IMG/VR virus record: IMGVR_UViG_2541047847_000003
Coordinates: 1-11,496 of that record
Direction: 5' to 3' (one strand)
DNA from: a virus
Taxonomy: Duplodnaviria > Heunggongvirae > Uroviricota > Caudoviricetes
DNA length: 11,496 bases
Shown: piece by piece, positions 1 through 11,496 of the stretch
Layout: the number at the start of each line of letters is the position of its first letter
Numbering within the stretch: the first letter of the stretch is position 1
Notes under the pieces: model-generated
What the model was told of the DNA's origin: nothing
What the model saw: only the letters and a program-made list of their open reading frames with translations
The model's database searches: none
Program-made: the position numbers and the translations under genes

Positions 1-95
1 AGTTTGCTCCTGCCATAACGTGAAGAAGCAATGACCTGGTGGTCCGTGACTTCCCTACGCTGGCATTATCCAGATCAGGTGATACGGGTATTTCT
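1..95 (-). promoter_or_regulatory. thiM: 3' part of the thiM TPP riboswitch (aptamer 3' half plus expression platform); thiM start codon lies just beyond the left edge
   Basis: Reverse complement of 1..95 reads AGAAAUACCCGUAUCACCUGAUCUGGAUAAUGCCAGCGUAGGGAAGUCACGGACCACCAGGUCAUUGCUUCUUCACGUUAUGGCAGGAGCAAACU, which matches the well-studied E. coli thiM thi-box leader as I recall it. Confidence 0.85.
82..95. other. attL core: 14-bp ATACGGGTATTTCT, identical to the copy at 11083..11096
   Basis: Exact 14-bp direct repeat at both island ends; flanking bases differ on both sides (81 g vs 11082 a; 96 t vs 11097 c). The repeat lies inside the riboswitch sequence. Confidence 0.75.
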
Positions 96-160
96 TACTA
101 ATTACTTTTACCAGTTGATAATAAATAAGTTTTTAAGAACGCATAAATTAAAAACCTCAG

Positions 161-235
161 AACTGACCACACAACTGACCACACATTTTGTTGAAGCTCT
201 ACGAACAACGACGAACAATAACAAACAAAAGGGAA
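161..235. repeat. attL-proximal arm block: tandem AACTGACCACAC x2 followed by ACGAACAA-type repeats; homologous to 10929..10995
   Basis: AACTGACCACAC at 161..172 and 173..184. The roughly 75-bp block is about 80% identical (by eye) to the block beside int at the other end, in the same orientation. Confidence 0.6.
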
Positions 236-1134
236 ATTTGCTGGTGGTTTTGCTTAACCGTTATCATTTTTCGGCTATCCGTCATGAAGCTGGTGGATGA
301 TCACGGATAACCAGGCATCCACAGCGCCTTAAAAAGCTGAACCCGACAAACATTTCTGCTTATCGGGTCCGATCGCTCTTTCTGCTCGTGGCAGATGAGT
401 TTATTGGGAGAGGCGGAAACATTGTATCAGGCTATCCCCTTTCTGTGCTGATTTGCATAGTTGTATATAGCTGTGCGTCCACCAGACACGCAGGAATGGA
501 GTTTGTGAGGAACTATAAATCCTGCGCAAATTTTCCCGGCCCACTCAAATTGAGTTTTCCGAAAATATCAACGGCTTAGGCCAAAGCCCGAAAAAGGGCT
601 TTGTAAAAAATTAACCTAATACGGTCGCTTTAACCTACGGTAATCGTTCTGCTTCGGTGTGTGTCCCCTCTGCGGCCATCATGACCATGCCATAACAAAA
701 ACCCCATATTCGTGGTTTTTCTGTGTCGGGGCTATTCTGCTGTTGCCGTGCTGGTGGATATTCTCCGGTATGCGACTCCCCATATCGGCATCAGGCCCAC
801 CAGCGTGAAGCGTTTTTCATTTTTCGCGGGTATAAAAAATTGATGGGGCTGGCAGTCCGGAAGACGTCAGGGTACAGAGATTTGACCCGCCCCTCCCTGT
901 GCATAAGCACAATAAGTAACAGAAGGCGGAATTCCGCCCTCGGTACTCACATATGAGAAACGATATTTCTTCCACCGATACCCTTTATTTGGGTATCGCG
1001 AGTAAGCCCCAAAATCTGGGTGTTACTCTTACTACCCAAACTACGGGTGGTTTCCGTAGTTTCATGGTCGAGTTGCAGATCTGCAACTCACCCACCAGCC
1101 AACGCAATTTTGCGTTATCGGGAATATCAGGAAT

Positions 1135-1419
1135 CTACCGCCGCAACCGTTCCGGCTTCCTCCACTGGTAAGTATTTTTCGCGCTCTCCCTCCGTTGTTG
1201 AGAACGGCGACGGTATGCCAGCAACTCAAGGACTCTGATCCGTATGTCGCGCATATCCACGCCGTTAAGCTCGATACCGTCACGGCGCATCATCTCAGCC
1301 ACCACACGCGCGTAATTTTCGGCTATCACGCTGTCCGGCTGCGTGGCCTCCTGTTTGCTTGATGGTTGTTTGATTCCGGTAACGCGGCGGATTAATCCCA
1401 GCAATTCAGATTCTGTCAT
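1135..1419 (-). CDS. Small protein immediately downstream of terS; possible lambda gpFI-like packaging accessory protein
   Basis: ORF of 94 aa. N-terminus MTESELLGLIRRVTG resembles lambda FI MTKDELIARLRSLG, and VVAEMMRRDG resembles the FI C-terminal VAAEMTERG, both from memory. The C-terminal 40 aa are basic and low-complexity. Confidence 0.45.
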   Translation of the reverse strand: MTESELLGLIRRVTGIKQPSSKQEATQPDSVIAENYARVVAEMMRRDGIELNGVDMRDIRIRVLELLAYRRRSQQRRESAKNTYQWRKPERLRR

Positions 1420-1430
1420 AGTGCGCTACG

Positions 1431-1958
1431 TTACTTGTCTTTATTCGGCTGCAACTTATCCGGCACATTTCCGGTAGTTTCCATCAGGTAATCAGCCAGT
1501 ATCTGCGGGAGGTTGTCGTCAACTCCGGCACTGGCATTACAGGCTTTAGCCACTTCCTTTTTAAGTCCATCCAGCATAGCCGGAGTCATCTGTGGGAAGC
1601 GCCTTTGCATGGTAAGCGGCAGACTGTCCATGATAGATGAAATCTGACTCGCCAGTTTGGAAAGAACATACATACAAAACTCTGTATCAATAACGTCGCC
1701 GCGTTCGCGCTCGTTTTTAAGCTCCTGCGCCTCTGCCTGTGCTGTCAGTAATCTGATCCTGACGCGTAAAAGTTCATCGTCATCAATATCGCCCGTTTCG
1801 TTTGTAATCTGACTAATTGCATTGTTAACCCGATTATCTATTACACTGGCAACATCATAGAATGCCTCACGGCCCTTACGCTCGACGGGAATCACTCCCC
1901 ACTTATCAAACGCAGTGGCGCTTACACGGCAACTTTTTGCCATGTTTTTTTTGTTCAT
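1431..1958 (-). CDS. Terminase small subunit, lambda Nu1 family
   Basis: Translation aligns with lambda Nu1: RLLTAQAEAQELKNERERGDVIDTEFCMYVLSKLASQISSIMDSLPLTMQRRFP versus RLTRAQADAQELKNARDSAEVVETAFCTFVLSRIAGEIASILDGLPLSVQRRFP. N-terminal DNA-binding region is more diverged. Start chosen at the ATG giving MNKKN; the ORF track extends to 1982. Confidence 0.85.
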   Translation of the reverse strand: MNKKNMAKSCRVSATAFDKWGVIPVERKGREAFYDVASVIDNRVNNAISQITNETGDIDDDELLRVRIRLLTAQAEAQELKNERERGDVIDTEFCMYVLSKLASQISSIMDSLPLTMQRRFPQMTPAMLDGLKKEVAKACNASAGVDDNLPQILADYLMETTGNVPDKLQPNKDK

Positions 1959-2083
1959 CAGGTGCAATTTCATTGATACCACAACTTAATTACTGTTTCA
2001 GGTTGGTGTATTGATTGTATTTTTCTCTTCTTATTCATAGAGATAGAGCGAACAACAAAACCACCACCAGCCCCCTGAAAATG

Positions 2084-2148
2084 CTCATAAATAGCGAAAA
2101 CCCGCGAGGTCGCCGCCCCGTAGCCTGCCGGATCGCCGGAAAGGACCC
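2084..2148 (-). other. Lambda-type cos site (cosQ-like and cosN; 12-nt cohesive-end sequence at 2107..2118)
   Basis: Reverse complement of 2084..2120 is ACGGGGCGGCGACCTCGCGGGTTTTCGCTATTTATGA, identical to the lambda cosN junction and left end. 2119..2148 matches the lambda right-end cosQ region at about 27 of 30 positions. Lies about 130-150 bp upstream of terS, as in lambda. Confidence 0.85.
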
Positions 2149-2174
2149 GCCAGCCAGAACGGGCCCTAATTTCA

Positions 2175-2558
2175 TCAACCAATCAACTTATAGCGACCAT
2201 CCCGTGCATTGCGACGTACACGCTCAATCTTGAGGCATAGCGCCGCATCTGGCTTTTTGGGGACAGGTACGCGGCAATATTCAGAAGCTCGAGGAATATT
2301 GTTTATCCAGTCGATCACTTCACTTAAATACCAGGCCTTACGCCCTTCCGTAACCTGTACGCGTTCGGGGAACTCTCCACGAGCCTCAAGGTTTAGCAAT
2401 GTGCGACGGCTAAGGGTAGTAAGTTCCATCACCTGATTCATATCAACAAGGCGTTCACTTAAACGCATTTTGTCAGCAATAGCCTTTAATTCCTCTACTG
2501 CTGGATCCGGATACATCATTTCGGCAATTGGCTTAAGGTCATTGTAATGATTCTGCAT
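2175..2558 (-). CDS. AlpA/Vis-family HTH protein (second copy), 127 aa
   Basis: Central segment LTTLSRRTLLNLEARGEFPERVQVTEGRKAWYLSEVIDWI matches the AlpA-type HTH pattern. GGGGGA Shine-Dalgarno 4 nt upstream of the ATG; sits between the decoration gene and cos. Confidence 0.65.
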   Translation of the reverse strand: MQNHYNDLKPIAEMMYPDPAVEELKAIADKMRLSERLVDMNQVMELTTLSRRTLLNLEARGEFPERVQVTEGRKAWYLSEVIDWINNIPRASEYCRVPVPKKPDAALCLKIERVRRNARDGRYKLIG

Positions 2559-2569
2559 TGTATCCCCCT

Positions 2570-2911
2570 TTACACACGAGCCAGCGGCTGAACAGAAATA
2601 CCTGAGCCAACAAACGCGGCAACCTTTGCCGACAGTTCTCTTACAGACTCAGGCCAGTTCAGAGCATCAACATTTAAAACACCTGTCTTATAAACCTGTG
2701 CCTGTGTTTTTTTCGCTGTGTCGATTTGTACAGCGGAAACATAAACCGCTTTGCCTGCGCTCGTTCCATCCCATACCACTAGCGCACCAGTTGCATCTTC
2801 CTGCATCAGTGGCGTAAACGCAGGTATTACCCCTTTATTGGCTGAAAATATCCCCAGCGTAGTAACCAGTGCTTCAGTGCCAGACATGAGTTCAGTGTAA
2901 TGAGTAGCCAT
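2570..2911 (-). CDS. Head decoration protein, lambda gpD-like
   Basis: 113 aa. FTPLMQEDATGALVVWDGTSAGKAV parallels lambda gpD [25 protein letters not shown]; similar length. GGGGGAG Shine-Dalgarno 9 bp after the MCP stop. Confidence 0.8.
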   Translation of the reverse strand: MATHYTELMSGTEALVTTLGIFSANKGVIPAFTPLMQEDATGALVVWDGTSAGKAVYVSAVQIDTAKKTQAQVYKTGVLNVDALNWPESVRELSAKVAAFVGSGISVQPLARV

Positions 2912-2920
2912 TGCTCCCCC

Positions 2921-3967
2921 TTAGCCAATGCGAACGGTAACAAAACGATTGATGCGGGCCGGTATTGGCTGTGGTGCTGAATGTGTCTGCACATATTCAA
3001 TAGCCGGATCACCAGGCACAATATAGTTTTTCGGTGCAAGTTCGGCTTTAGTCAGCCCCATCCGAATTAGCTCCGGATCCTGAATACCGCCATAAGCGAC
3101 AATCCCCTGAAGAGCCGTATTGCCAAGCACCATCAAATCAGGATCAAGGAAATATTTTTCAGTTCCGTCCTCGTCGGTATAACGCCCGCTGTAAACAACA
3201 ATCGCAACATCGCCCATATACCCTTTAAAACTCACCGAATCACCAAGGTCTTTAAGGGCCGTTTCCAGTTCGGAATTAGAACCTCGACGGGTATCCAGAG
3301 CCTCTTTTACAGCTCTGAATGAGCGGTATTTTTTCCATACATTGCCGCCCATAATAATGATATTAGTGACTCCCTCACTAAATTCTGCGTAGCTCTCAAT
3401 ATCATCATTTGGATCAAAAGATCCTTTATCCTTACCTGACCACTCAGCACCGCCAGACTGAGTGATGATATTTTGTGGTTTAATATTCCAGTCCAGTTCA
3501 TAACGTTCAATACCATCGCCCTCAATGATATTTTTCCCCGTTGTGATTGCCTGAACAGCAAGCCATTCAATACGTGCACGTATAGCTTTAGCCTGATTTA
3601 CAATCGCCTGTTTAACTTTAATATTACGCGCCCCAAAAGCATTGTATTGTTCAGGTGATACACCAGCAGGGCGCACAGCTAACTTATTTGGATCAATGCT
3701 GCTTTTCGGTTTCATATAGCCAGGGCGAATTGTTTTTGATTCGTATCCCTCATCTCGTGAAACTTTACTGCCCACCATAGGAGAGCAAAACGCCGCGATC
3801 GGGATATTTGGATCGTCGATCGTATCAAGAATAATGTCTCTCGATTCAAACATTACCGAGCGAGTGAAAAACAAACTGGTAAACAACGCATTTAATTTTT
3901 TTTGCACATCTTCAGCATTAGCCACCTGCACAAGCTGTGTAGGCGAATATAAATCAACCATACTCAT
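2921..3967 (-). CDS. Major capsid protein, lambda gpE family
   Basis: Long collinear similarity to lambda gpE, for example NIITQSGGAEWSGKDKGSFDPNDDIESYA and AVKEALDTRRGSNSELETALKDLG and GDVAIVVYSG. Start set at MSMVDLY (lambda begins MSMYTT) with AAGAGG just upstream; the ORF track start at 4048 is probably an upstream extension. Confidence 0.9.
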   Translation of the reverse strand: MSMVDLYSPTQLVQVANAEDVQKKLNALFTSLFFTRSVMFESRDIILDTIDDPNIPIAAFCSPMVGSKVSRDEGYESKTIRPGYMKPKSSIDPNKLAVRPAGVSPEQYNAFGARNIKVKQAIVNQAKAIRARIEWLAVQAITTGKNIIEGDGIERYELDWNIKPQNIITQSGGAEWSGKDKGSFDPNDDIESYAEFSEGVTNIIIMGGNVWKKYRSFRAVKEALDTRRGSNSELETALKDLGDSVSFKGYMGDVAIVVYSGRYTDEDGTEKYFLDPDLMVLGNTALQGIVAYGGIQDPELIRMGLTKAELAPKNYIVPGDPAIEYVQTHSAPQPIPARINRFVTVRIG

Positions 3968-4132
3968 CCTCTTTACATTCATTACAAATAATTGTGAATA
4001 TATTCTATTACCGATGTCTGCTATGCGAATACATGCAACCAAGTGCAATGTTGTATAAAATCTGCCGTGACAACTTCAGTGCTGATAATTCGTGTTAATG
4101 TATTTACTTCCTTTGGTCGGGATTTATGTAGC

Positions 4133-4171
4133 ATGCCGGAAAATCTATTTTCTTCCGGCATTTTTTTATTT
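4133..4171 (+). terminator. Intrinsic-terminator-like hairpin with T-run on the plus strand
   Basis: ATGCCGGAA (4133..4141), 11-nt loop, TTCCGGCAT (4153..4161), then TTTTTTTATTT. On the minus strand the hairpin has no U-run after it. Confidence 0.45.
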
Positions 4172-4178
4172 GCAGAAT

Positions 4179-4601
4179 TTAAAACGGTATATTATCGCCG
4201 TACGGATCATCATTCCCCGACTGTTGTTTTGCCCTGTTCAGTGCGTCAGTAGCCTGGCCCTGTTGACCTTTTTTGCCGCCCGGTCGCGCCGTTCTGGCAC
4301 TGATTACACTGTCTGCGATAACCTGCCAGCCCTGCCGCGTTTCGCCGTTCTGGCCTGTCCACTGGCTTACCTGCATGTTACCCGCCACGCTCACCAGTTC
4401 GCCTTTGTGGTGTTTTGCCAGTGCGTCGGCCTGTCTGCCAAACGCCAGGACGGATAACCACATCGTCGCCGTTCCGTCATCTGCCTGGCTGCACGGAAGT
4501 GGGACCGCCATACTCGCCATCGTCATTTGTGTACCCTTGCTGGTGGTCTTTAACTGCGGGTCAGCCACCAGCCGCCCGTAAGCCGCTATCTGTGCTGTCA
4601 T
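4179..4601 (-). CDS. Single-stranded DNA-binding protein (SSB-like)
   Basis: 140 aa with an OB-fold-like pattern (WLSVLAFGRQADALAKHHKGELVSVAGNMQVSQWTGQNGETRQ), a Gly/Gln-rich linker and a C-terminal DDPYGDNIPF resembling the SSB DDDIPF tail. Confidence 0.7.
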   Translation of the reverse strand: MTAQIAAYGRLVADPQLKTTSKGTQMTMASMAVPLPCSQADDGTATMWLSVLAFGRQADALAKHHKGELVSVAGNMQVSQWTGQNGETRQGWQVIADSVISARTARPGGKKGQQGQATDALNRAKQQSGNDDPYGDNIPF

Positions 4602-4843
4602 GCTGTCTGCTCTCCGGTTTTAACGTTGATGGTTGTCACCTGTTCCGCTTCGGCAATCTCCCGTTCTGTCAGCGTGGCAAAGTTTGCAGCTGCCGTTGTC
4701 ATGAATGAGCTAATCAGTTCGGGATGTGCTTTCGCATATCCTTCCCCGGCGTTGCGGTCGATGATTTTTATCGACACCCTTAACCAGTGTTCCGTCAAAT
4801 CAAGGGCGTGCGATTGTGATTTTTTTGTGTGCTTCGCTGTCAT
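4598..4843 (-). CDS. Hypothetical protein, 81 aa, translationally coupled to ssb
   Basis: ORF whose stop overlaps the ssb start by 4 bp (ATGA); no recognisable motifs. Confidence 0.45.
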   Translation of the reverse strand: MTAKHTKKSQSHALDLTEHWLRVSIKIIDRNAGEGYAKAHPELISSFMTTAAANFATLTEREIAEAEQVTTINVKTGEQTA

Positions 4844-4895
4844 AGGCTTTATCTCACAGCAGTAAATTAAAATTTTTGCGTTTTAACCCTTCACC

Positions 4896-5116
4896 TGTTC
4901 ACCTTTTGATATTTTATCTTTTAATTCATAATGTTAAGGGGTGAACAGTTTCACAAAAACTATTCACCAACTGTTCACCACTGTTCACCCTTGAAGCTCA
5001 ATAAACAATCAAAAAGGTGAACAGTGAATAGTTTGGTGAACAGTTCATAAATAACTGTTCACCCTATAACATACTGATACAAAAGATATTTATGACAGGG
5101 TGAACAGTGGTGAACA
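4896..5116. repeat. Origin-like iteron cluster: about 10 copies of TGTTCACC/GGTGAACA in both orientations with AT-rich spacers (P4 ori/crr type)
   Basis: TGTTCACC at 4896, 4972, 4982, 5056; GGTGAACA at 4940, 5016, 5035, 5099, 5109; variants at 4961 and 5024. Immediately downstream of the alpha-like gene. Confidence 0.85.
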
Positions 5117-5130
5117 GTTATTCCATAAGT

Positions 5131-6948
5131 TTAATTTTTGCTATCGTCATTAGTGACCGATACACATGATGGCATCCAGTCTTCTGATTCCTCCGTCAGT
5201 GTCACGTTTGAACGCAAACCGTGCTTCGTTTTCCGTTTCATATACTCCCTGCCATATTCCGCCATTGCCCCCGGCATATCTTTACCGAAGCGCGTCAGTG
5301 TTACAGGTTTACCAAACCCATGTGCCCTCATATAAGCCAGATAGGCATGATAGAGATACCTGCGTGGGCTGAATGGCACAATTTCAGCATTACCCACTAA
5401 CAGGCCATCACACATTACCGACGCCATGAGATAGCCGCAGAAGTCCACCAGCGAATCCCCCTCTCGCTTTATCGCCAGTGCTTCTTCAGATTTCTGCTGC
5501 TCATATAACAGGCGTCTGGCTTCGTCCTGGTCAGCAAACCGTGTAAGCAGATGGCGAATCACTACCGCCAACTCACCTTCTATTTTTTCCGCCAGCATTG
5601 GATCGCGTTCGTTCTCCGGTACAACTTCCGAAAAATTGAATATCACCCGACGACGTGAGATCCCCCCGCTGCGGTCACTGAATGACATGGCGTTATTGTT
5701 AACCGCCAGCACTACTGCCGGAATACGCGTTGAGTAGGGGGCTTTGTGTTTCGGGTCAATTGCCACCTTGTCACCGCCTGTAATGGCCTTAATTCCTGCC
5801 CCATCACCAGCGTAGCGGGTCATATCCGGCATGATAATCAGCGAAAAGCCAACCACTAACGCGCGTTCCCTTGCATCTTCCAGCGCCTTCATGCTTGCCG
5901 ATACTGTGTTGGCCTTACCCGCCAGCATGGTGCAAATCTCCGCCATCACGCTTTTACCACTTCCCCCTGGACCTGTTACCTCAATGAATAACTGCCAGTC
6001 GTACCGGTTCGCCAGCACCATGAATAATGCAGCCAGTACGCGATCCGCCTTGCGGTCATTCTCAGCCACCGAACGGCGTAACCACTTCCAGAAATTCGGC
6101 GCATGTGTTGCCAGCGTTTCCCCCTCTGCTGGTGGGCTGAAAGGTAATTCACTGGCAATTAACAACCAGTCGTTTTTGTTATGCTCCCGAAAATTACCTG
6201 TTCTGGTATCAAATACCCCGTTACTGAATCCAATCAGGTTACGGGCTGTATTCCCCATTACAGGCAAACTTAACTTCATGGTATCGACCGCCGATTTAAT
6301 GGCGTTCTGCGAATAGCTGATCTCTGCATCAATGAAAATCTGCGCCATAGCTCGCTGTAATTCTTTATCCTGTACTGGCTCCCATACAACGCCGTTGTAA
6401 TGGTGAACAGTGTCAGAGTCAGCATGAATCGCCAGTTCACCGCCATAATGTGCCAGGAGAACTTCGCCGCGTTGACTTGCTCCCATCTGGTTAAGCGCCA
6501 GTGATGAAGCGTTATCGTCTTTTACCCGCTCTTTTTTCTTTACAGGCAGTTCAACTACCTTTTTCTTTTCCGCCAGCTCTGCCCGTTCACGTTCCAGATA
6601 TTCGCGCCAGTTCTCCCGTTTCTGGCTGTGCATTCCTTCAGGGTAATAATCAGCATCCCTGACACCTGCCGCTGCCAGTTTCTGCCCGATGGTATTAACA
6701 AGCCCCGGACGCAATAACCCCGCCTGATAGAGACGCACGCGATAGCGTCCGTCCGGTACGATTTGCAGGTTGTCCAGTTCGGCAAGTTGTTGCTCTCCAA
6801 GCCAGACAGGAGGCACGTTATCGCCAGCCAGTCGCCCGTCCTGTTCCTGCCACTGCTTCGCATGTGCCCACGCATCACTACCCGCAAAAATGATGACTTC
6901 CGTCATTTTGTCACGCGGCTGGTGTTTTAAATTTGGCGCTTTTTTCAT
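5131..6948 (-). CDS. P4 alpha-like replication protein (primase/helicase family, D5-type P-loop NTPase)
   Basis: Walker A GPGGSGKS and a Walker B-like hydrophobic stretch; adjacent TGTTCACC iterons. Start set at the ATG giving MKKAPNL (GGAGAGAG upstream); the ORF track start at 6963 is a GTG. No primase catalytic motif was identified by eye. Confidence 0.8.
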   Translation of the reverse strand: MKKAPNLKHQPRDKMTEVIIFAGSDAWAHAKQWQEQDGRLAGDNVPPVWLGEQQLAELDNLQIVPDGRYRVRLYQAGLLRPGLVNTIGQKLAAAGVRDADYYPEGMHSQKRENWREYLERERAELAEKKKVVELPVKKKERVKDDNASSLALNQMGASQRGEVLLAHYGGELAIHADSDTVHHYNGVVWEPVQDKELQRAMAQIFIDAEISYSQNAIKSAVDTMKLSLPVMGNTARNLIGFSNGVFDTRTGNFREHNKNDWLLIASELPFSPPAEGETLATHAPNFWKWLRRSVAENDRKADRVLAALFMVLANRYDWQLFIEVTGPGGSGKSVMAEICTMLAGKANTVSASMKALEDARERALVVGFSLIIMPDMTRYAGDGAGIKAITGGDKVAIDPKHKAPYSTRIPAVVLAVNNNAMSFSDRSGGISRRRVIFNFSEVVPENERDPMLAEKIEGELAVVIRHLLTRFADQDEARRLLYEQQKSEEALAIKREGDSLVDFCGYLMASVMCDGLLVGNAEIVPFSPRRYLYHAYLAYMRAHGFGKPVTLTRFGKDMPGAMAEYGREYMKRKTKHGLRSNVTLTEESEDWMPSCVSVTNDDSKN

Positions 6949-7244
6949 TTCTGCTCTCTCCACGCGGCAATCATGTTTTTCAGTTCCTGTAGTTTTTTAT
7001 CCACATCCACACGTGACACATGGTTATTTCTGGAAGTCGGGATTTCCCGCCGGAATCTGCAAATAAAGATCTCCACGTTCAGCGAACTAAGAAATGAATA
7101 GCCATCACGAATAAAATACACACGGTCAAACATCAGTTCTTTTACCGTTACTCTGTTACCGTTCTTATCCAGATAAATAGCGCCGGGGATAATTTTGGGG
7201 TGTGCATAACCGCTGGCAGTCAAGCCAGATAAATATGTTCTCAT
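6945..7244 (-). CDS. Hypothetical protein, 99 aa, translationally coupled to the alpha-like gene
   Basis: Stop overlaps the alpha start (ATGA); no recognisable motifs. Confidence 0.55.
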   Translation of the reverse strand: MRTYLSGLTASGYAHPKIIPGAIYLDKNGNRVTVKELMFDRVYFIRDGYSFLSSLNVEIFICRFRREIPTSRNNHVSRVDVDKKLQELKNMIAAWREQK

Positions 7245-7250
7245 GATTAT

Positions 7251-7571
7251 TTATCCCCGATTTGAATCAGTATTCGCTTTCTTTATGGCATTTAATGCAT
7301 CTGTGGCATTTTCAATGGTGCACCGTAACGAAATATCAAACTGCCCAAGCATTGCCAGTAACAAACCGATATTACCCATATCAATGCGCATAGCCTTTTC
7401 GTCATAGTCCTCATTTTCTGACGCATGCCACATCAGACTACCAATTGACGCAACAGCCATTGATATATTGTCAGTAGCCCCATCCGCAGCGGAATAAACC
7501 TTTTTAGCAATATCATGCTCACAGTTAAAATGCGGATTAATCAGGTACTGGTAATTTGACATATCAGGCAT
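7251..7571 (-). CDS. Hypothetical protein, 106 aa
   Basis: ORF in the same operon; its start overlaps the stop of the upstream 67-aa ORF (ATGCCTGA). Confidence 0.55.
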   Translation of the reverse strand: MPDMSNYQYLINPHFNCEHDIAKKVYSAADGATDNISMAVASIGSLMWHASENEDYDEKAMRIDMGNIGLLLAMLGQFDISLRCTIENATDALNAIKKANTDSNRG

Positions 7572-7767
7572 GGCACACCCCCTGACGAATACGGGCGGCG
7601 AATACCATCACGCAGCCAGCCGGGGATTGCTGGCGTGCTTCCTGTTCGCTGGTGGCCACGATGTGAATCACGCGCGGTTGTGCGGTGCTCAGGGCGATAA
7701 AACGCCAGATGTATTTATTCAGGTCGTGCGAGTCCCGCCCTTGCGGGTGTGTGGTATGATTTCTCAT
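7564..7767 (-). CDS. Hypothetical small protein, 67 aa, first gene of the replication operon
   Basis: Internal ATG of the 320-aa track ORF, preceded by GAGG; the sequence upstream in that frame looks non-coding. Stop is coupled to the next gene. Confidence 0.45.
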   Translation of the reverse strand: MRNHTTHPQGRDSHDLNKYIWRFIALSTAQPRVIHIVATSEQEARQQSPAGCVMVFAARIRQGVCHA

Positions 7768-7863
7768 AGCTACCTCGATACGCTTTCTATCGTTGGTGGT
7801 TAGAAGCCCGGTTAGTGTTAGCGCACTGCCGGGTTTCGTCGTTTCTGCACCTTGCATCAACAA

Positions 7864-7917
7864 GGTGTTGAACACCAATTTAAGCCTAGGTGTTAAACAC
7901 GTCAAGTGTTGAACACT
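7864..7917. promoter_or_regulatory. Three operator-like inverted repeats (GGTGTTGAACACC, GGTGTTAAACAC, AGTGTTGAACACT) in a divergent promoter region
   Basis: Repeats at 7864..7876, 7889..7900 and 7905..7917. The third overlaps a candidate -35 (TTGAAC) placed 17 bp from CATACT for the plus-strand gene. Confidence 0.6.
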
Positions 7918-7966
7918 TATTTTTTTTCCTGCATACTGCATTTGTTTTTTGTAAGGGGTACACAAC

Positions 7967-8146
7967 ATGGCGACAAAAGCAGTAAACGCAAAATCACAAA
8001 CAGTTGCGGCAAGGGTTCCGCATGAAGTTATGAACAATGTTGAGGCGGTAAAAATGCCTGGTGAAAGTACAGGGCAGTTTGTAACAGCAGCATTAAAGCG
8101 AGAAGTTGAATACCGCCAGCGTCGCAAGGCCAAAGAGCAGGAGTAA
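7967..8146 (+). CDS. Small ribbon-helix-helix-like protein, 59 aa; candidate repressor
   Basis: Below the ORF-track length cutoff. AGGGG Shine-Dalgarno 8 nt upstream. Pattern QTVAARVPHEVMNNVEAV...GESTGQFVTAALKRE fits a beta-strand/helix/helix RHH layout. Confidence 0.5.
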   Translation: MATKAVNAKSQTVAARVPHEVMNNVEAVKMPGESTGQFVTAALKREVEYRQRRKAKEQE

Positions 8147-8203
8147 CCATCACCAGCGCCGTGGTGCGGTGAACTGTGGCGCACAGGGTTACAGGTATCT
8201 ACG

Positions 8204-8383
8204 ATGACTGACAAATCATTAAAGAAATTATCCTCATCCAAGAAAAAACAACGCAAAAATGCGGTAAACGAACATGAACCGGAGAGATTCGCACCATGTG
8301 CGTTTGTCCTTGAGAAGTACCTTAAAGAGTATTCTAGGAAAATACGCTCATTGCAGGCATGGCAGCGAATCGAGCCAGACTGA
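8204..8383 (+). CDS. Hypothetical small basic protein, 59 aa
   Basis: ORF found by hand downstream of the RHH-like gene and before the plus-strand terminator; weak Shine-Dalgarno. Confidence 0.3.
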   Translation: MTDKSLKKLSSSKKKQRKNAVNEHEPERFAPCAFVLEKYLKEYSRKIRSLQAWQRIEPD

Positions 8384-8447
8384 TAGCATTGCCCACCAGC
8401 CAACAACCTGGTATTCTGGATATGCTCAAGTTTAGTGTTATGCCACT

Positions 8448-8477
8448 GGCGACCGCCCTTGGTCGCCTTTGTTTTAT
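8448..8477 (+). terminator. Rho-independent terminator (plus strand)
   Basis: GGCGACC, loop GCCCTT, GGTCGCC, followed by TTTGTTTTAT. Confidence 0.6.
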
Positions 8478-8494
8478 GTGTCATAGCTCCCCCC

Positions 8495-8719
8495 CTACGC
8501 TGCCTTACCTGAATTAACGCGGTCACGGCTTTGCACCCAGTCCATAACTTCGGAAAGCAACCAGCCTACAGAACGCCCCCCAAGATTACGGCGAGACGGA
8601 AAGCCCCCTTTCTTCTCCAGTTCGTAGCGTGTAGTACGGCTGACGCCTGTTAACTTACGACATTCATCTTCACGAATTACGCGATCTGTTAGTGATTGAA
8701 ATTGTGTATTTTGATTCAT
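8495..8719 (-). CDS. alpA: AlpA-family transcriptional regulator / excisionase-like HTH protein
   Basis: 74 aa; RKLTGVSRTTRYELEKKGGFPSRRNLGGRSVGWLLSEVMDWV matches the AlpA/Vis-type HTH pattern; GAGGG Shine-Dalgarno. Confidence 0.8.
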   Translation of the reverse strand: MNQNTQFQSLTDRVIREDECRKLTGVSRTTRYELEKKGGFPSRRNLGGRSVGWLLSEVMDWVQSRDRVNSGKAA

Positions 8720-8822
8720 AAAAACACCCTCGAACGTAACCGAACAAGGGCATCTTATTTACCATAGCAGTTGGTGCAATATTGGAAAAATAAACTTTAT
8801 TCTAATTTATCGTTCTCCATGA

Positions 8823-9677
8823 TTAATTTTCATTAGATAACATTTTTCTTATTTTTTCTAAAGAATCGCTGCGCATTATTTTTTCTAAGAAGGGTTTTAC
8901 AGTCTGAGCAATAGCAAAGGTGTCCTTTTCACCATCAGGATACAAAGATACGGCAAGCACCCCTAATGAAATTTTTCTATCTGTAGACAACTCCCAAGAT
9001 AATAAGTCAATTAATGGGATTATCTTATAATCAATAATTTTACGTCGTATGCTCTCCCAACTTCCTGCAATTGGTTTGTCTGGCTCAACAATTGAAAGTT
9101 CACTACGCCATTTTGGTAATAGTTTTGTAAACGCTTCAATCAACTCATCATCTCTGTTATGTAGTAAGTCAACAGAAACAAGCATATTATCTAATGTATC
9201 AGAAAGGAGATTCACTGGTTCACGCATCACAGCCCAAAACATCCCATTATCTTCTGATATTAAACTTCCAACCATCTCATTATCTATGATGATTGGTTTA
9301 TCCTTCCAATATCCTCTTTCCGCAGTCAGTTTATTAATCATTGATATATCAAACCTTGTTACAGGTTTAATTCCATCATCATAACTTAGCTCAATTAACT
9401 TCGGCTGCACTTTATGGTCATATTCTTTTTGTTTATCACAAAACCAATCGTCTTCTTTCAGCTCTCCAAATGGATCCCCATAATTATTATGCAACGGGTA
9501 TTCAGCACCAAACATAAAACCATATTCAGGCATCTCAGAATGTTTCATTGTTAAATCATCTTGTCGCCAATATAATTGGCGAAATAGATCTTTATCCGAC
9601 AAGTTTTCTAGGCAATCATATTTGCCTAAATCAAATGACTTTGGTAAATCTTTTTTACTATTTACTTTTTTCGTCAT
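8823..9677 (-). CDS. Hypothetical 284-aa protein, AT-rich cargo gene immediately downstream of int
   Basis: Long ORF whose start overlaps the int stop by 4 bp. Visibly more AT-rich than the neighbouring genes (not computed). No motif I recognise. Confidence 0.7.
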   Translation of the reverse strand: MTKKVNSKKDLPKSFDLGKYDCLENLSDKDLFRQLYWRQDDLTMKHSEMPEYGFMFGAEYPLHNNYGDPFGELKEDDWFCDKQKEYDHKVQPKLIELSYDDGIKPVTRFDISMINKLTAERGYWKDKPIIIDNEMVGSLISEDNGMFWAVMREPVNLLSDTLDNMLVSVDLLHNRDDELIEAFTKLLPKWRSELSIVEPDKPIAGSWESIRRKIIDYKIIPLIDLLSWELSTDRKISLGVLAVSLYPDGEKDTFAIAQTVKPFLEKIMRSDSLEKIRKMLSNEN

Positions 9678-10894
9678 TGTATCCCTCTCAATATCACAAT
9701 ATTTTCATTATATCCTGCAATCATATCAAGACGCTCAACCCATAGATGCAGTGCGTCCCGTTTCGCCTGCAAATAGCGTGAATGGTTATAGGTTTTTTGC
9801 TGACCTGGCATCTGATGCGCTGTGATGTGCTCCACGATATGCGGATCGACACCTAAATCATTCAGCATAGTTGTAAACGTGTGTCGGAAATCATGCAGCG
9901 TCCAGTGTTCCTGCTTAAGCCGCTTATGCGCATTTCGTCCATATTGCGCCACCGTGGTATCTTTTTTCAGTTCGCCGAGTAATAACCCAGTGTGTGCGTT
10001 TTGCTCCACCAGCTTCTGAATGAACGGCAAAATACCATCAGGAATAGGTCGGAATATTGTTACCTTCGTTTTGCTGTGCTCTTTTGGCACTGTCCACAAC
10101 ATTTCTTTCAGATCCCATTCTTTGATCTCTGAAAGTCTGATCTCTGCCGTTCTGCACCCGAACACAATTAACAAGCGCATTAACGCACTGTAATAGGGAG
10201 CGAACACATCACCATCAATAGCGCGTAGAATTTCTTTTAGTTCGCTGTTGCTGTGCACTCTCTCGCGGATTTCTGCTCTCTTACCCACATCAGTAACGAT
10301 CAAATCGTCCAGGGCGTTGCTAAACGCGTAGCGCCGCCTGCGGCAAAACTTTAGCGCCTGTTTGCATGTCTGCATGACATGGCCCGCTGCTACTGGTGCT
10401 TTTTTTCGTACGCGGTCAAAACATGCGATCCACTGCCTTGTATCACACTTATCAAGGGGAATTGCCCCGATATGGCAAATGATGTGCTTATCCATACGCT
10501 GCACCAGCTTTATGTAATCTTTGCGGTTATCCTTCGCGTATTCCTCCAGCCAGTAGTTAATCGCTTCCTTCACCGTAACGGGTTTTAGTGCTTCCTGTAC
10601 TGTGGCGCACAACTCATACCGAGGGTTTTTACCCTCAGCCAGCCATGCCCGGCACTGTGTTCGCTTTTCCCTTGCAGATTTCAGCGACAATTCCGGGTAA
10701 GCCCCCAGCTTTAACCGCTCTGCGGCAACCTCACGGCCTCCCGTTCGGTACCGGAAATACCAGGTTAATTTACCTCCCTTTGAGTGTTTAATCTCCAGCC
10801 CGCCCCCGTCGGAGTAAAAACGTTCTTTTTCTGCCTGGACAGCCACCAATTTTTTTAACGTTGAATCGCTCAGTTTGTTTAGTGCTTTTCCCAC
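9674..10894 (-). CDS. int: Tyrosine recombinase, P4-type integrase family
   Basis: 406 aa. N-terminal arm-binding-type region (GGKLTWYFRYRTGGREV...LGAYPELSLKSAREK); C-terminal catalytic motifs HDFRHTF and YNHSRY; GTG start. Confidence 0.9.
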   Translation of the reverse strand: MGKALNKLSDSTLKKLVAVQAEKERFYSDGGGLEIKHSKGGKLTWYFRYRTGGREVAAERLKLGAYPELSLKSAREKRTQCRAWLAEGKNPRYELCATVQEALKPVTVKEAINYWLEEYAKDNRKDYIKLVQRMDKHIICHIGAIPLDKCDTRQWIACFDRVRKKAPVAAGHVMQTCKQALKFCRRRRYAFSNALDDLIVTDVGKRAEIRERVHSNSELKEILRAIDGDVFAPYYSALMRLLIVFGCRTAEIRLSEIKEWDLKEMLWTVPKEHSKTKVTIFRPIPDGILPFIQKLVEQNAHTGLLLGELKKDTTVAQYGRNAHKRLKQEHWTLHDFRHTFTTMLNDLGVDPHIVEHITAHQMPGQQKTYNHSRYLQAKRDALHLWVERLDMIAGYNENIVILRGIQ

Positions 10895-10928
10895 TATCAG
10901 ATCCTCTTTTCAGTCCTCCAGCCTCAAA

Positions 10929-10995
10929 AAACTGACCACACAACTGACCACACATTTCGCTGAAACTCGGCAAACAACAACGAACAGCAACAAAC
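10929..10995. repeat. int-proximal arm block: tandem AACTGACCACAC x2 plus CAACAACGAACA-type repeats; homologous to 161..235
   Basis: AACTGACCACAC at 10929..10940 and 10941..10952, about 30 bp upstream of the int start. Confidence 0.6.
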
Positions 10996-11082
10996 GAGAA
11001 AGCCAATTAAATCATTGTATATCAAACATATACACAAACAATCACGAACATCCCAGAACTACAAAAAACACTAAATGAGAAA

Positions 11083-11096
11083 ATACGGGTATTTCT
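11083..11096. other. attR core: ATACGGGTATTTCT
   Basis: Identical to 82..95; continuous on its right with chromosomal thiM leader sequence. Confidence 0.75.
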
Positions 11097-11127
11097 CAGC
11101 CTTCACAAAGAAGGGCACCCCGAGTCG
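11083..11127 (-). promoter_or_regulatory. thiM: 5' part of the thiM TPP riboswitch aptamer, separated from its 3' half by the island
   Basis: Reverse complement reads CGACUCGGGGUGCCCUUCUUUGUGAAGGCUGAGAAAUACCCGUAU, the 5' half of the thiM aptamer including the conserved CUGAGA element. Confidence 0.8.
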
Positions 11128-11223
11128 TTTGGTTGCGATAATAAATCGCAGAGGAGGATGGTAATGTCCAGCGCACGCGTTGTAAACGGGGAAAAACGGC
11201 GGTATTACAATAACGTTGTGAAA

Positions 11224-11496
11224 TTATTTGATATAAGAATCCAGCACCTTCAGAACGACATCCAGATCTTCTTCTCGTTTTAGCTCATCCCCCTGGTGAA
11301 CGATGTGTTCCGTCAGATGGCCTTTAATCACTTCCCGCATCAGACCGTTTACCGCGCCACGGATAGCAGCAATCTGTTGTAAAACTGCAGCGCATTCATG
11401 CGGTTCGTCGAGCATTTTCTTGAGCGCCACGACCTGGCCCTGAATCTTACTGGCACGCGCTTTCAGTTTCTGTTTATCACGGATTGTATGAGACAT
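11224..11496 (-). CDS. rcnR: Ni/Co-responsive transcriptional repressor RcnR (CsoR/RcnR family)
   Basis: 90-aa translation [61 protein letters not shown]... matches E. coli RcnR as I recall it; complete CDS ending at the window edge. Confidence 0.85.

Follow-up and report, generated by a model that had tools for sequence, protein, structure and literature searches.

Which terminase would read and cut the cos site of a satellite whose cohesive end is that of phage lambda? This question is raised by the window analyzed here, that is, the whole stretch of 11,496 nucleotides at positions 1 to 11,496 of the IMG/VR virus record IMGVR_UViG_2541047847_000003. On sequence grounds, window 2148..1997 is the cos site of a Gram-negative phage-inducible chromosomal island (PICI) of the EcCICFT073 family. 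A sequence-only reading of this DNA had placed a lambda cosN in a satellite, and the satellite is indeed an 11-kb island with an integrase, alpA, a primase and replication origin (ori) and attachment (att) repeats, and without genes for the large terminase subunit (TerL), portal, tail and lysis. What that reading missed is that packaging specificity, judged from the sequences compared here, sits in cosB and the terminase small subunit (TerS), both of which are non-lambda and island-encoded in this case, so that the small subunit of the helper may be unneeded. We consider it probable that the island TerS binds a private cosB and recruits the TerL of a helper to cut the lambda-type cosN.

The presence of lambda cosQ and cosN in an Escherichia coli PICI, together with a cosB unlike that of its helper, has already been published and explained for the Rpp type in 2018-2019. 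The core finding is a further instance of this arrangement, and its remaining value lies in the variant: a shared cosN combined with a full-length island TerS and a conserved private cosB instead of Rpp. In the published system, lambda and phi80 can transfer a plasmid into which the cos sites of EcCICFT073 have been cloned (Fillol-Salom et al. 2018 ISME J, PMC6092414; 2019 Mol Cell, PMC6739421). Both phages as well as a resident 21-like prophage make use of cos1 of EcCICFT073, which is required for transfer of the island; the island DNA is packaged at phage size, its cosB is unlike that of the helper, and Rpp binds the helper TerS and retargets it (PMC6092414, PMC6739421). Helper-dependent induction, replication and high-frequency transfer are known for EcCICFT073 only. 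The same system was reviewed by Murialdo & Feiss 2022 (PMC9026076), who proposed an R3-PICI at bp 55-63.

Lambda-type cosQ and cosN and the class of helper

As reference for lambda we used phage DE3 (EU078592.1), which is lambda-derived and has cos annotated at the 12 bases GGGCGGCGACCT. On the minus strand, window 2121..2085 reads ACGGGGCGGCGACCTCGCGGGTTTTCGCTATTTATGA and is identical to the lambda cos junction at 37 of 37 positions in direct alignment with DE3. The 37-bp identity reported earlier holds at every base; only its coordinates, 2084..2120, were shifted by one base (correct 2085..2121). The exact match reaches one base more upstream, to a T at 2122, and for an exact 37-mer a match by chance can be considered excluded. 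The predicted 12-nt 5' overhang GGGCGGCGACCT lies at 2118..2107 (minus strand), exactly where the sequence-only reading had placed it, is the same as the annotated DE3/lambda cos, and occurs as a single copy in the window. CG nick-site dinucleotides flank it on both sides, and its context, ACG-GGGCGGCGACCT-CGC, is that of lambda, with a conserved CG at both nick positions and a conserved left half. The right arm of cosN, CGCGGGTTTTCGCTATTTATGA (2085..2106, minus strand; bp 13-34, counted from the first base of the cohesive end), is identical to lambda and to cos1 of EcCICFT073, and homology to both stops here.

Upstream of the junction, the 30 bp at 2151..2122 contain three mismatches to lambda, in agreement with the earlier estimate of about 3 of 30 for the adjacent cosQ-like segment. 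The packaging-termination element cosQ, GGGTCCT (2148..2142, minus strand), is identical to that of lambda and is found 23 bp from the nick, the same distance as in the aligned lambda record. To examine conservation, we collected 80 IMG/VR loci whose TerS was 83-99% identical to that of the window, together with two E. coli islands, which yielded 53 unique cos sequences (81 island copies); cosQ was nearly invariant across them. The site in the window is a lambda-type cosQ-cosN, and the homologous EcCICFT073 site, which has an identical 39-bp core and the same gene position, is an experimentally functional cos.

Of 99 phage records with a match, 74 shared a core of ~77 bp at 90-95% identity, and almost all of these were lambda-like Escherichia phages. 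A 1.5-kb query gave matches in 4,338 E. coli genomes, the majority of which matched it in the cos core only. In this way, most E. coli genomes contain dispersed cos cores from defective lambdoid prophages, and the site in the window might accordingly be read as an inert relic, a cos left behind by a decayed lambdoid prophage in a region that is no longer mobilized. Such an origin is very improbable in view of the intactness and common orientation of all family-assigned open reading frames (ORFs) of the island, the exact att cores, and the clean insertion indicated by the empty site of K-12. Moreover, 265 complete E. coli genomes and at least 80 IMG/VR loci contain the module, which occupies no fewer than two different att sites, and its cosQ, nick-site flanks and cosB blocks are clearly conserved.

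The earlier prediction of the helper class stands as far as a lambda-like phage with 12-nt 5' ends and a gpA-type TerL is concerned, but the identity of cosN identifies the helper no further. Base changes in bp 7-12 of cosN make no difference to cutting by lambda TerL, and such changes are common in nature (Feiss et al. 2015, PMC4669245). Among the sibling islands, bp 1-5 of cosN were invariant and bp 6-12 were polymorphic: 23 of the 80 loci had the same flanks, cosB and TerS but other 12-mers (GGGCGTCAGGCG, GGGCGGAAGGCG, GGGCGGCAGACG and others), further variants being GGGCGGCTGACG and single-base variants of the lambda allele. Ends such as GGGCGTCAGGCG and GGGCGGAAGGCG are carried by siblings that have the same cosB and a TerS 98-99% identical to that of the window, and an alternative 12-mer was even carried by one locus whose TerS is 99% identical to it. 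The GGGCGTCAGGCG and GGGCGGAAGGCG ends were also observed in IMG/VR contigs with a lambda-type R3, and the overall distribution suggests that cosN alleles may be exchanged between phages and PICIs around a conserved cos core. Considering the indifference of TerL to bp 7-12 and this allele variation, the lambda cosN allele alone fails to fix the helper, which has to be lambda-like and to have a compatible TerL. We also tried to narrow the helper by the similarity of TerS C-termini and of TerL N-termini, and dropped this approach because no phage TerS was more than 50% identical and the TerL N-termini differ. Counted on the alignment, the TerS tail was identical at 19 of 42 positions to the Monarch-like type versus 13 of 42 to lambda.

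The predicted island cosB and the small terminase subunit

Identity to lambda is lost right after ...TTTATGA (window 2085), ~35 bp into the left end. As the identity stops there, the lambda cosB (R3-I1-R2-R1) is absent, and no R sequence of lambda's own is present. In the corresponding region we identified two candidate recognition elements, followed by the start of terS at about bp 137-146. The R3-like element TGGTGGTGGTTTTGTTGTT (2051..2069, minus strand; bp 50-68), with its core GGTGGTGGT at bp 51-59 (2068..2060), is the proposed primary TerS binding site, and sits where R3 lies in N15, in a Monarch-like lambdoid prophage (L009) and in lambda (bp 50-65). The inverted R2-like element ACACCAACCTGAA (1997..2009, minus strand; bp 110-122) has a reverse complement that contains GGTTGGTGT, 2009..2001 being ACACCAACC, and corresponds in both position and orientation to R2 of L009. 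A possible third R-like element, AAGTTGTGGTAT (1976..1987, minus strand; bp 132-143), overlaps the TerS start; it is tentative, having two mismatches to the phage R consensus and poor conservation among the islands.

A comparison with the two most similar phage-type sites showed how these elements differ. In L009, R3 is AGTTGTTGT at bp 50-58 (plus orientation), R2 is GGTTGTTGT at bp 109-117 (minus) and a third element, again GGTTGTTGT, lies at bp 187-195 (plus). In N15, R3 is GGTTGTTGT at bp 50-58 (plus), R2 is lacking, and the third element is the published rR2, GGTTGTAGT, at bp 250-258 (minus). The window has the R3-like GGTGGTGGT at bp 51-59 (plus), the R2-like GGTTGGTGT at bp 110-118 (minus) and the weak third element at bp 132-143 (plus). 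Hence the R-like elements of the island, GGTGGTGGT and GGTTGGTGT, differ from the Monarch-like GGTTGTTGT by T-to-G changes. In the 53 unique sequences, bp 51-61 (GGTGGTGGTTT) and all 13 positions of bp 110-122 were invariant, whereas the cosQ-cosN spacer, the interior of the cohesive end and the remaining cosB, including the flanks of bp 51-61, were variable.

The gene next to this cosB encodes a TerS of the Nu1 family (1431..1982, minus strand; Pfam Phage_Nu1, 1.1e-24; phrog_57, 5.7e-54). The ORF has 183 amino acids (aa), and its RefSeq relatives begin at an ATG three codons in, giving 180 aa. The protein could be aligned over its full length with lambda Nu1 (35% identity across residues 3-180), and was 48% identical to gp1 of N15 and 49% identical to the TerS of L009. 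According to the alignment, its DNA-binding domain is of the short N15/Monarch type, and the stretch aligned with the recognition helix of Nu1 reads TAFDKWGV in the island versus QAFDKWGV in N15/Monarch (Q to T). The C-terminal stretch aligned with the published TerL-binding region of Nu1 is complete, and a 12-aa tail is common to all island copies. The N15/Monarch-type systems (PMC4669245, PMC9026076) therefore resemble the island in the short TerS DNA-binding domain, in a G/T-rich R3 at bp ~50-59 and, in the case of L009, in the inverted R2 at bp ~110. They differ from it in the R sequences and in the first residue of the recognition-helix stretch; furthermore, the cosN of N15 is GGGCGGCGTCCG, whereas the window has the lambda allele, and in the window no TerL gene follows TerS.

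A full-length small-terminase homologue is thus encoded by the satellite beside its own predicted recognition site, which is the arrangement that marks a TerS strategy like that of the Staphylococcus aureus pathogenicity islands (SaPIs). By inference, the island resembles SaPI1/SaPIbov1, in which TerS-S and its site are brought by the satellite and TerL, capsid and tail are borrowed from the helper. On the other hand, the SaPIs package by the headful (pac) mechanism and block the phage TerS with a separate Ppi protein, whereas the window has a cos site with shared cosN/cosQ, and no Ppi analogue was identified in it.

From these features we infer that the island TerS, rather than that of the helper, reads cosB and binds the helper TerL. 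The whole process would begin with a lambda-like helper that induces the island, followed by excision and by replication from its own primase/ori into concatemers. The full-length Nu1-family TerS (1431-1982) would bind the private cosB, that is, the R3-like GGTGGTGGTTTTGTTGTT at bp 51-68 and the inverted R2-like element at bp 110-122, and its C-terminal domain would recruit the gpA-type TerL of the helper. The latter would nick cosN (2107-2118) to give 12-nt 5' cohesive ends, and the DNA would then be translocated into helper proheads, with termination at the downstream cosQ/cosN when the head is nearly full. Lambda packages DNA of ~75-105% of its genome length. The unit length of the island is 11,001 bp; four units (44.0 kb) amount to 91% of the lambda genome (48,502 bp), three units to 68% and five to 113%. 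Given these limits, tetramers would be expected, with about four island copies per head.

Several points weigh against this mechanism. First, the C-terminus of the island TerS is only 31-45% identical to the C-termini of phage TerS proteins, and no phage TerS more than 50% identical to it was found in the phage collection searched, which makes TerL binding by the island TerS putative; in addition, the TerL N-termini vary between lambda, N15, 21-like and Monarch-like phages. Second, no sigma-70-like promoter and only weak terminator-like sites were detected near cos, so that terS expression must rely on read-through or on an unrecognized promoter. Third, the region that includes the interval between the R3- and R2-like elements (1983-2106) contained no match to the consensus of integration host factor, WATCAANNNNTTR, with up to one mismatch. 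Fourth, we found no experimental characterization in the literature of a TerS-type cos PICI in E. coli or of the island in the window. Finally, N15-type TerS is promiscuous and packages lambda DNA (PMC4669245, PMC9026076), and a helper TerS might read this cosB directly.

The last point bears on pure mimicry of a phage cos, in which the TerS-TerL of the helper would package the island as in the case of SaPIbov5 or P4 and the island TerS would be dispensable for packaging, being either a captured passenger or a protein that acts solely in interference with the helper. SaPIbov5 and P4 also bear a helper-type cleavage site, but theirs is a complete helper cos and they depend on the helper TerS, whereas only cosQ/cosN of the window are helper-like and its cosB/TerS are private. 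Mimicry would fit with a phage-identical cosQ and cosN, and with the fact that, in the absence of Rpp, lambda and phi80 still transfer the cloned cos sites of EcCICFT073, if at lower efficiency. Moreover, the R elements of the Monarch-like E. coli prophage (GGTTGTTGT) are only 1-3 bases off those of the island and occupy the same positions, and a foreign R3 is tolerated by N15-type TerS. Even so, we consider mimicry unlikely, since the island TerS is full-length, conserved (83-99% identity at 80 loci) and always ~139 bp from cosN, and the invariant R-like blocks beside it are unlike every phage R3 examined. It should also be noted that cosB and the specificity gene are swapped together, and that lambda fails to package even N15 DNA, whose R3 is closer.

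The relationship to Rpp raises another possibility, namely that the island TerS heterodimerizes with the helper TerS, blocks recognition of the phage cosB and retargets the complex to the island cosB, which would make the helper TerS essential. Here terS occupies the exact locus of rppA in sibling islands, the DNA-binding domain of Rpp is TerS-derived, residues 7-47 of RppA match the same PHROG as the island TerS, and the DNA-binding domains of TerS in this family are dimeric; an evolution of Rpp from TerS has been proposed by the Rpp authors themselves. However, Rpp proteins have 139-154 aa, with a C-terminus 30-40 residues shorter than that of lambda-like TerS, and are proposed to be without a TerL-binding domain, hence their need for the helper TerS. 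The protein of this locus (180-183 aa), in contrast, is aligned with Nu1 throughout and keeps the full C-terminal region and the 12-aa tail. It has no sequence similarity to RppA beyond the helix-turn-helix: BLASTP against RppA detected no similarity (E = 6.3), and PDB sequence search recovered neither RppC 6HLK nor the Nu1 N-terminal domains. We thus regard redirection of the Rpp kind as quite unlikely for this island. The TerS-like protein was also considered as a candidate Rpp and rejected on the basis of this E value, the lack of a match to RppC 6HLK and a profile match confined to the helix-turn-helix (probability 2.7%). No RppA homologue was identified elsewhere in the window, the best tblastn match (E = 0.011) lying within the primase gene.

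Packaging cassettes of related islands

Comparison of the window with EcCICFT073 places both in the same island family. The cos1 core of EcCICFT073, TTACGGGGCGGCGACCTCGCGGGTTTTCGCTATTTATGA, is identical to that of the window, neither site has a lambda-type cosB, and the order capsid, decoration, small ORF, cos, specificity gene and 93/94-aa ORF is the same. They differ in that EcCICFT073 has RppA (144 aa), which lacks a TerL-binding tail and hijacks the helper TerS, whereas the window has a full-length Nu1-family TerS, and the cosB element of EcCICFT073 is ACCACCACC at bp 55-63 instead of GGTGGTGGT at bp 51-59 on the other strand. Furthermore, EcCICFT073 is integrated beside phoQ rather than at the thiM-rcnR site, and its protein upstream of cos (137 aa) is unrelated to that of the window and has a weak match to a head-maturation protease PHROG. 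A second, inverted cos2 is present in EcCICFT073 and in the island of an O145 strain; no second cos was found in the window, which has one cosN.

The O145 island occupies the phoQ site and is almost the same as EcCICFT073 to either side of one cassette, whose boundaries fall exactly behind cosN bp ~35 and at the inverted cosN of cos2. This cassette contains cosB(ACCACCACC) and rppA in EcCICFT073 versus cosB(GGTGGTGGT) and terS in the O145 island, whose TerS is 88% identical to that of the window. cosB is therefore inherited together with the TerS or Rpp gene, and swaps of packaging specificity seem to use the cos cores as recombination boundaries. In both islands (EcCICFT073, L004 7559-8310; O145 island, L007 6033-6912), the cassette between the inverted cos1/cos2 cores holds cosB1, rppA or terS, and cosB2.

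A third cassette was observed on islands with the integrase backbone of the window, and encodes a ClpP-protease/capsid fusion and a DUF1441 protein, which is classified in PHROGs as another TerS family (phrog_141). The MLI114 island (L003) has such a third late module with a different cos, GGGCGGGAGCGG; two co-oriented copies of this other cos-like site (ACG GGGCGGGAGCGG/T CGCGGAAAAAGGC) are located at L003 ~3138-3149 and 5674-5685. The published EcCI224, which shares integrase, alpA and att site with the close relatives of the window, also has the third late module (L211 9871-10356).

The Rpp site proposed in the literature, ACCACCACC (EcCICFT073 cos1 bp 55-63, L004 7613-7621), is the exact reverse complement of GGTGGTGGT (window 2060-2068), and is found 4 bp farther from cosN on the opposite strand. 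In a triplet repeat, this inversion could have arisen by coincidence; alternatively, it might point to a shared origin.

On a wider view, to which we give somewhat less than an even chance, interchangeable packaging-specificity cassettes bounded by the cosN core may occupy one locus of E. coli PICIs. The window would then represent an uncharacterized cos analogue of the SaPI TerS strategy, in which a full-length N15-like TerS with the Q-to-T change in its recognition helix reads private R3/R2 elements (GGTGGTGGT, GGTTGGTGT) and needs the helper TerL alone, and the Rpp cassette, in which the same 9-mer, inverted at bp 55-63 (ACCACCACC), has been proposed as the binding site, would descend from such a TerS cassette by truncation.

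If the proposed role of the island TerS is true, TerS-type islands would be independent of the helper small subunit. Monarch-type phages, TerS-type PICIs and Rpp-type PICIs would provide a natural series for dissecting the recognition of cosB by lambda-like terminases, which Murialdo and Feiss 2022 (PMC9026076) had left as an open question. In addition, window 2148..1997 together with terS would define the sequences needed for packaging of plasmids or engineered islands by lambda-like helpers.

Gene content and integration site of the island

The island is inserted between thiM and rcnR. The empty site of K-12 changes from the left to the right flank at the attL core ATACGGGTATTTCT (82..95), which is the core published for EcCI224, and the attR core (11083..11096) is an exact 14-nt repeat of it; in the alignment, the insertion is clean and delimited on both sides by this core. 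In the closest complete genomes (97.5% identity, 93% coverage), the element likewise lies between thiM and rcnR, and strain C21 carries the island most closely related to that of the window. The integrase (WP_000513574.1) and alpA (WP_001075377.1) proteins of C21 are the same as those of the published PICI EcCI224 (Table S1, PMC6092414; frmR/rcnR-thiM site). EcCI224 also shares its att core, AGAAATACCCGTAT, and insertion site with the window, and differs in its late module, which consists of the ClpP-protease/capsid fusion and the DUF1441-type TerS.

All substantial ORFs are on the minus strand. The tyrosine integrase (9674-10894, minus strand; Pfam) has an Arm-DNA-bind_3 domain, and is separated from the canonical alpA (8495-8719, minus strand; Pfam, 4.8e-16) by a gene for a 284-aa DUF6387 protein (8823-9677, minus strand; Pfam). 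The int-alpA interval of E. coli PICIs often houses accessory or anti-phage genes. A 320-aa ORF (7564-8526, minus strand) had no Pfam match, and only its C-terminal 90 residues matched phrog_6196 (phage transcriptional repressor); in C21, the annotation of the region from an Icd-like gene to alpA shows, instead of this ORF, a truncated pseudogene and a small YlcI/YnfO gene on the opposite strand. PADLOC gave nothing significant for the DUF6387 protein, the 320-aa ORF and the small ORFs.

The replication module includes a D5-type primase/helicase (5131-6963, minus strand; Pfam D5_N, DUF5906 and Pox_D5) and, downstream of the primase, iterons GGTGAACAGT (4940-5128; repeat families D5, D6 and D9) that probably form the ori, a position of ori downstream of pri being the published PICI layout. 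A gene for a single-stranded DNA-binding protein follows the primase and iterons and precedes the capsid genes, which encode a lambda gpE-like major capsid protein (2921-4048, minus strand; Pfam Phage_cap_E, 5.9e-41) and a lambda gpD-like decoration protein (2570-2911, minus strand; Pfam HDPD, 4.6e-15). In EcCICFT073, deletion of c1499/c1500 (capsid/decoration) had no effect on transfer or interference.

Directly upstream of cos lies the gene for a second AlpA-family winged-helix protein of 127 aa (2175..2558, minus strand; Pfam Phage_AlpA, 1.4e-08; PDB 8C3T, 1.6e-10; phrog_2790), which is longer than, and additional to, the canonical alpA near int. This protein was considered as a candidate Rpp and rejected because it is of the AlpA family and unrelated to the EcCICFT073 protein at that position. 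On the other side, TerS is followed by a conserved 94-aa protein (1135..1419, minus strand; phrog_1561, 8.8e-49), and a ~93-aa hypothetical gene is found at the same place in sibling islands. The remaining ~1 kb at the thiM-proximal end (window 96-1134) has short ORFs only, without family assignment, and is partly missing from C21.

With int, a regulator, pri-rep, a capsid homologue and a small terminase, the island has the five components of the published PICI definition. It does not belong to the capsid-forming PICIs (cf-PICIs), as only the major capsid protein, the decoration protein and TerS are present, without its own TerL, portal, head-tail adaptor, connector or HNH. By tblastn, no TerL, Rpp or DUF1441 homologues were detected in the window, and none of its ORFs had a Pfam or PHROG assignment to portal, tail or lysis genes.

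Two further observations concern the island ends. Direct repeats of 66 nt, 86% identical to each other (161-226 and 10930-10995), each contain ACTGACCACAC twice and lie just inside both ends, so that they would flank the attP core once the island is circularized; they are probably arm-type binding sites of the integrase. As att sites, which would give a unit of 10,769 bp, these repeats were rejected by the K-12 empty-site alignment and the published EcCI224 core. Finally, the att core AGAAAUACCCGUAU falls within the aptamer of the thiamine pyrophosphate (TPP) riboswitch of thiM. The K-12 empty site (L210 3337-3433) matched RF00059 with 71.2 bits, whereas no TPP riboswitch match was found in the window at the gathering threshold of RF00059; integration would thus split the riboswitch and leave thiM with the 3' half only. 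The island genes and thiM have the same orientation.

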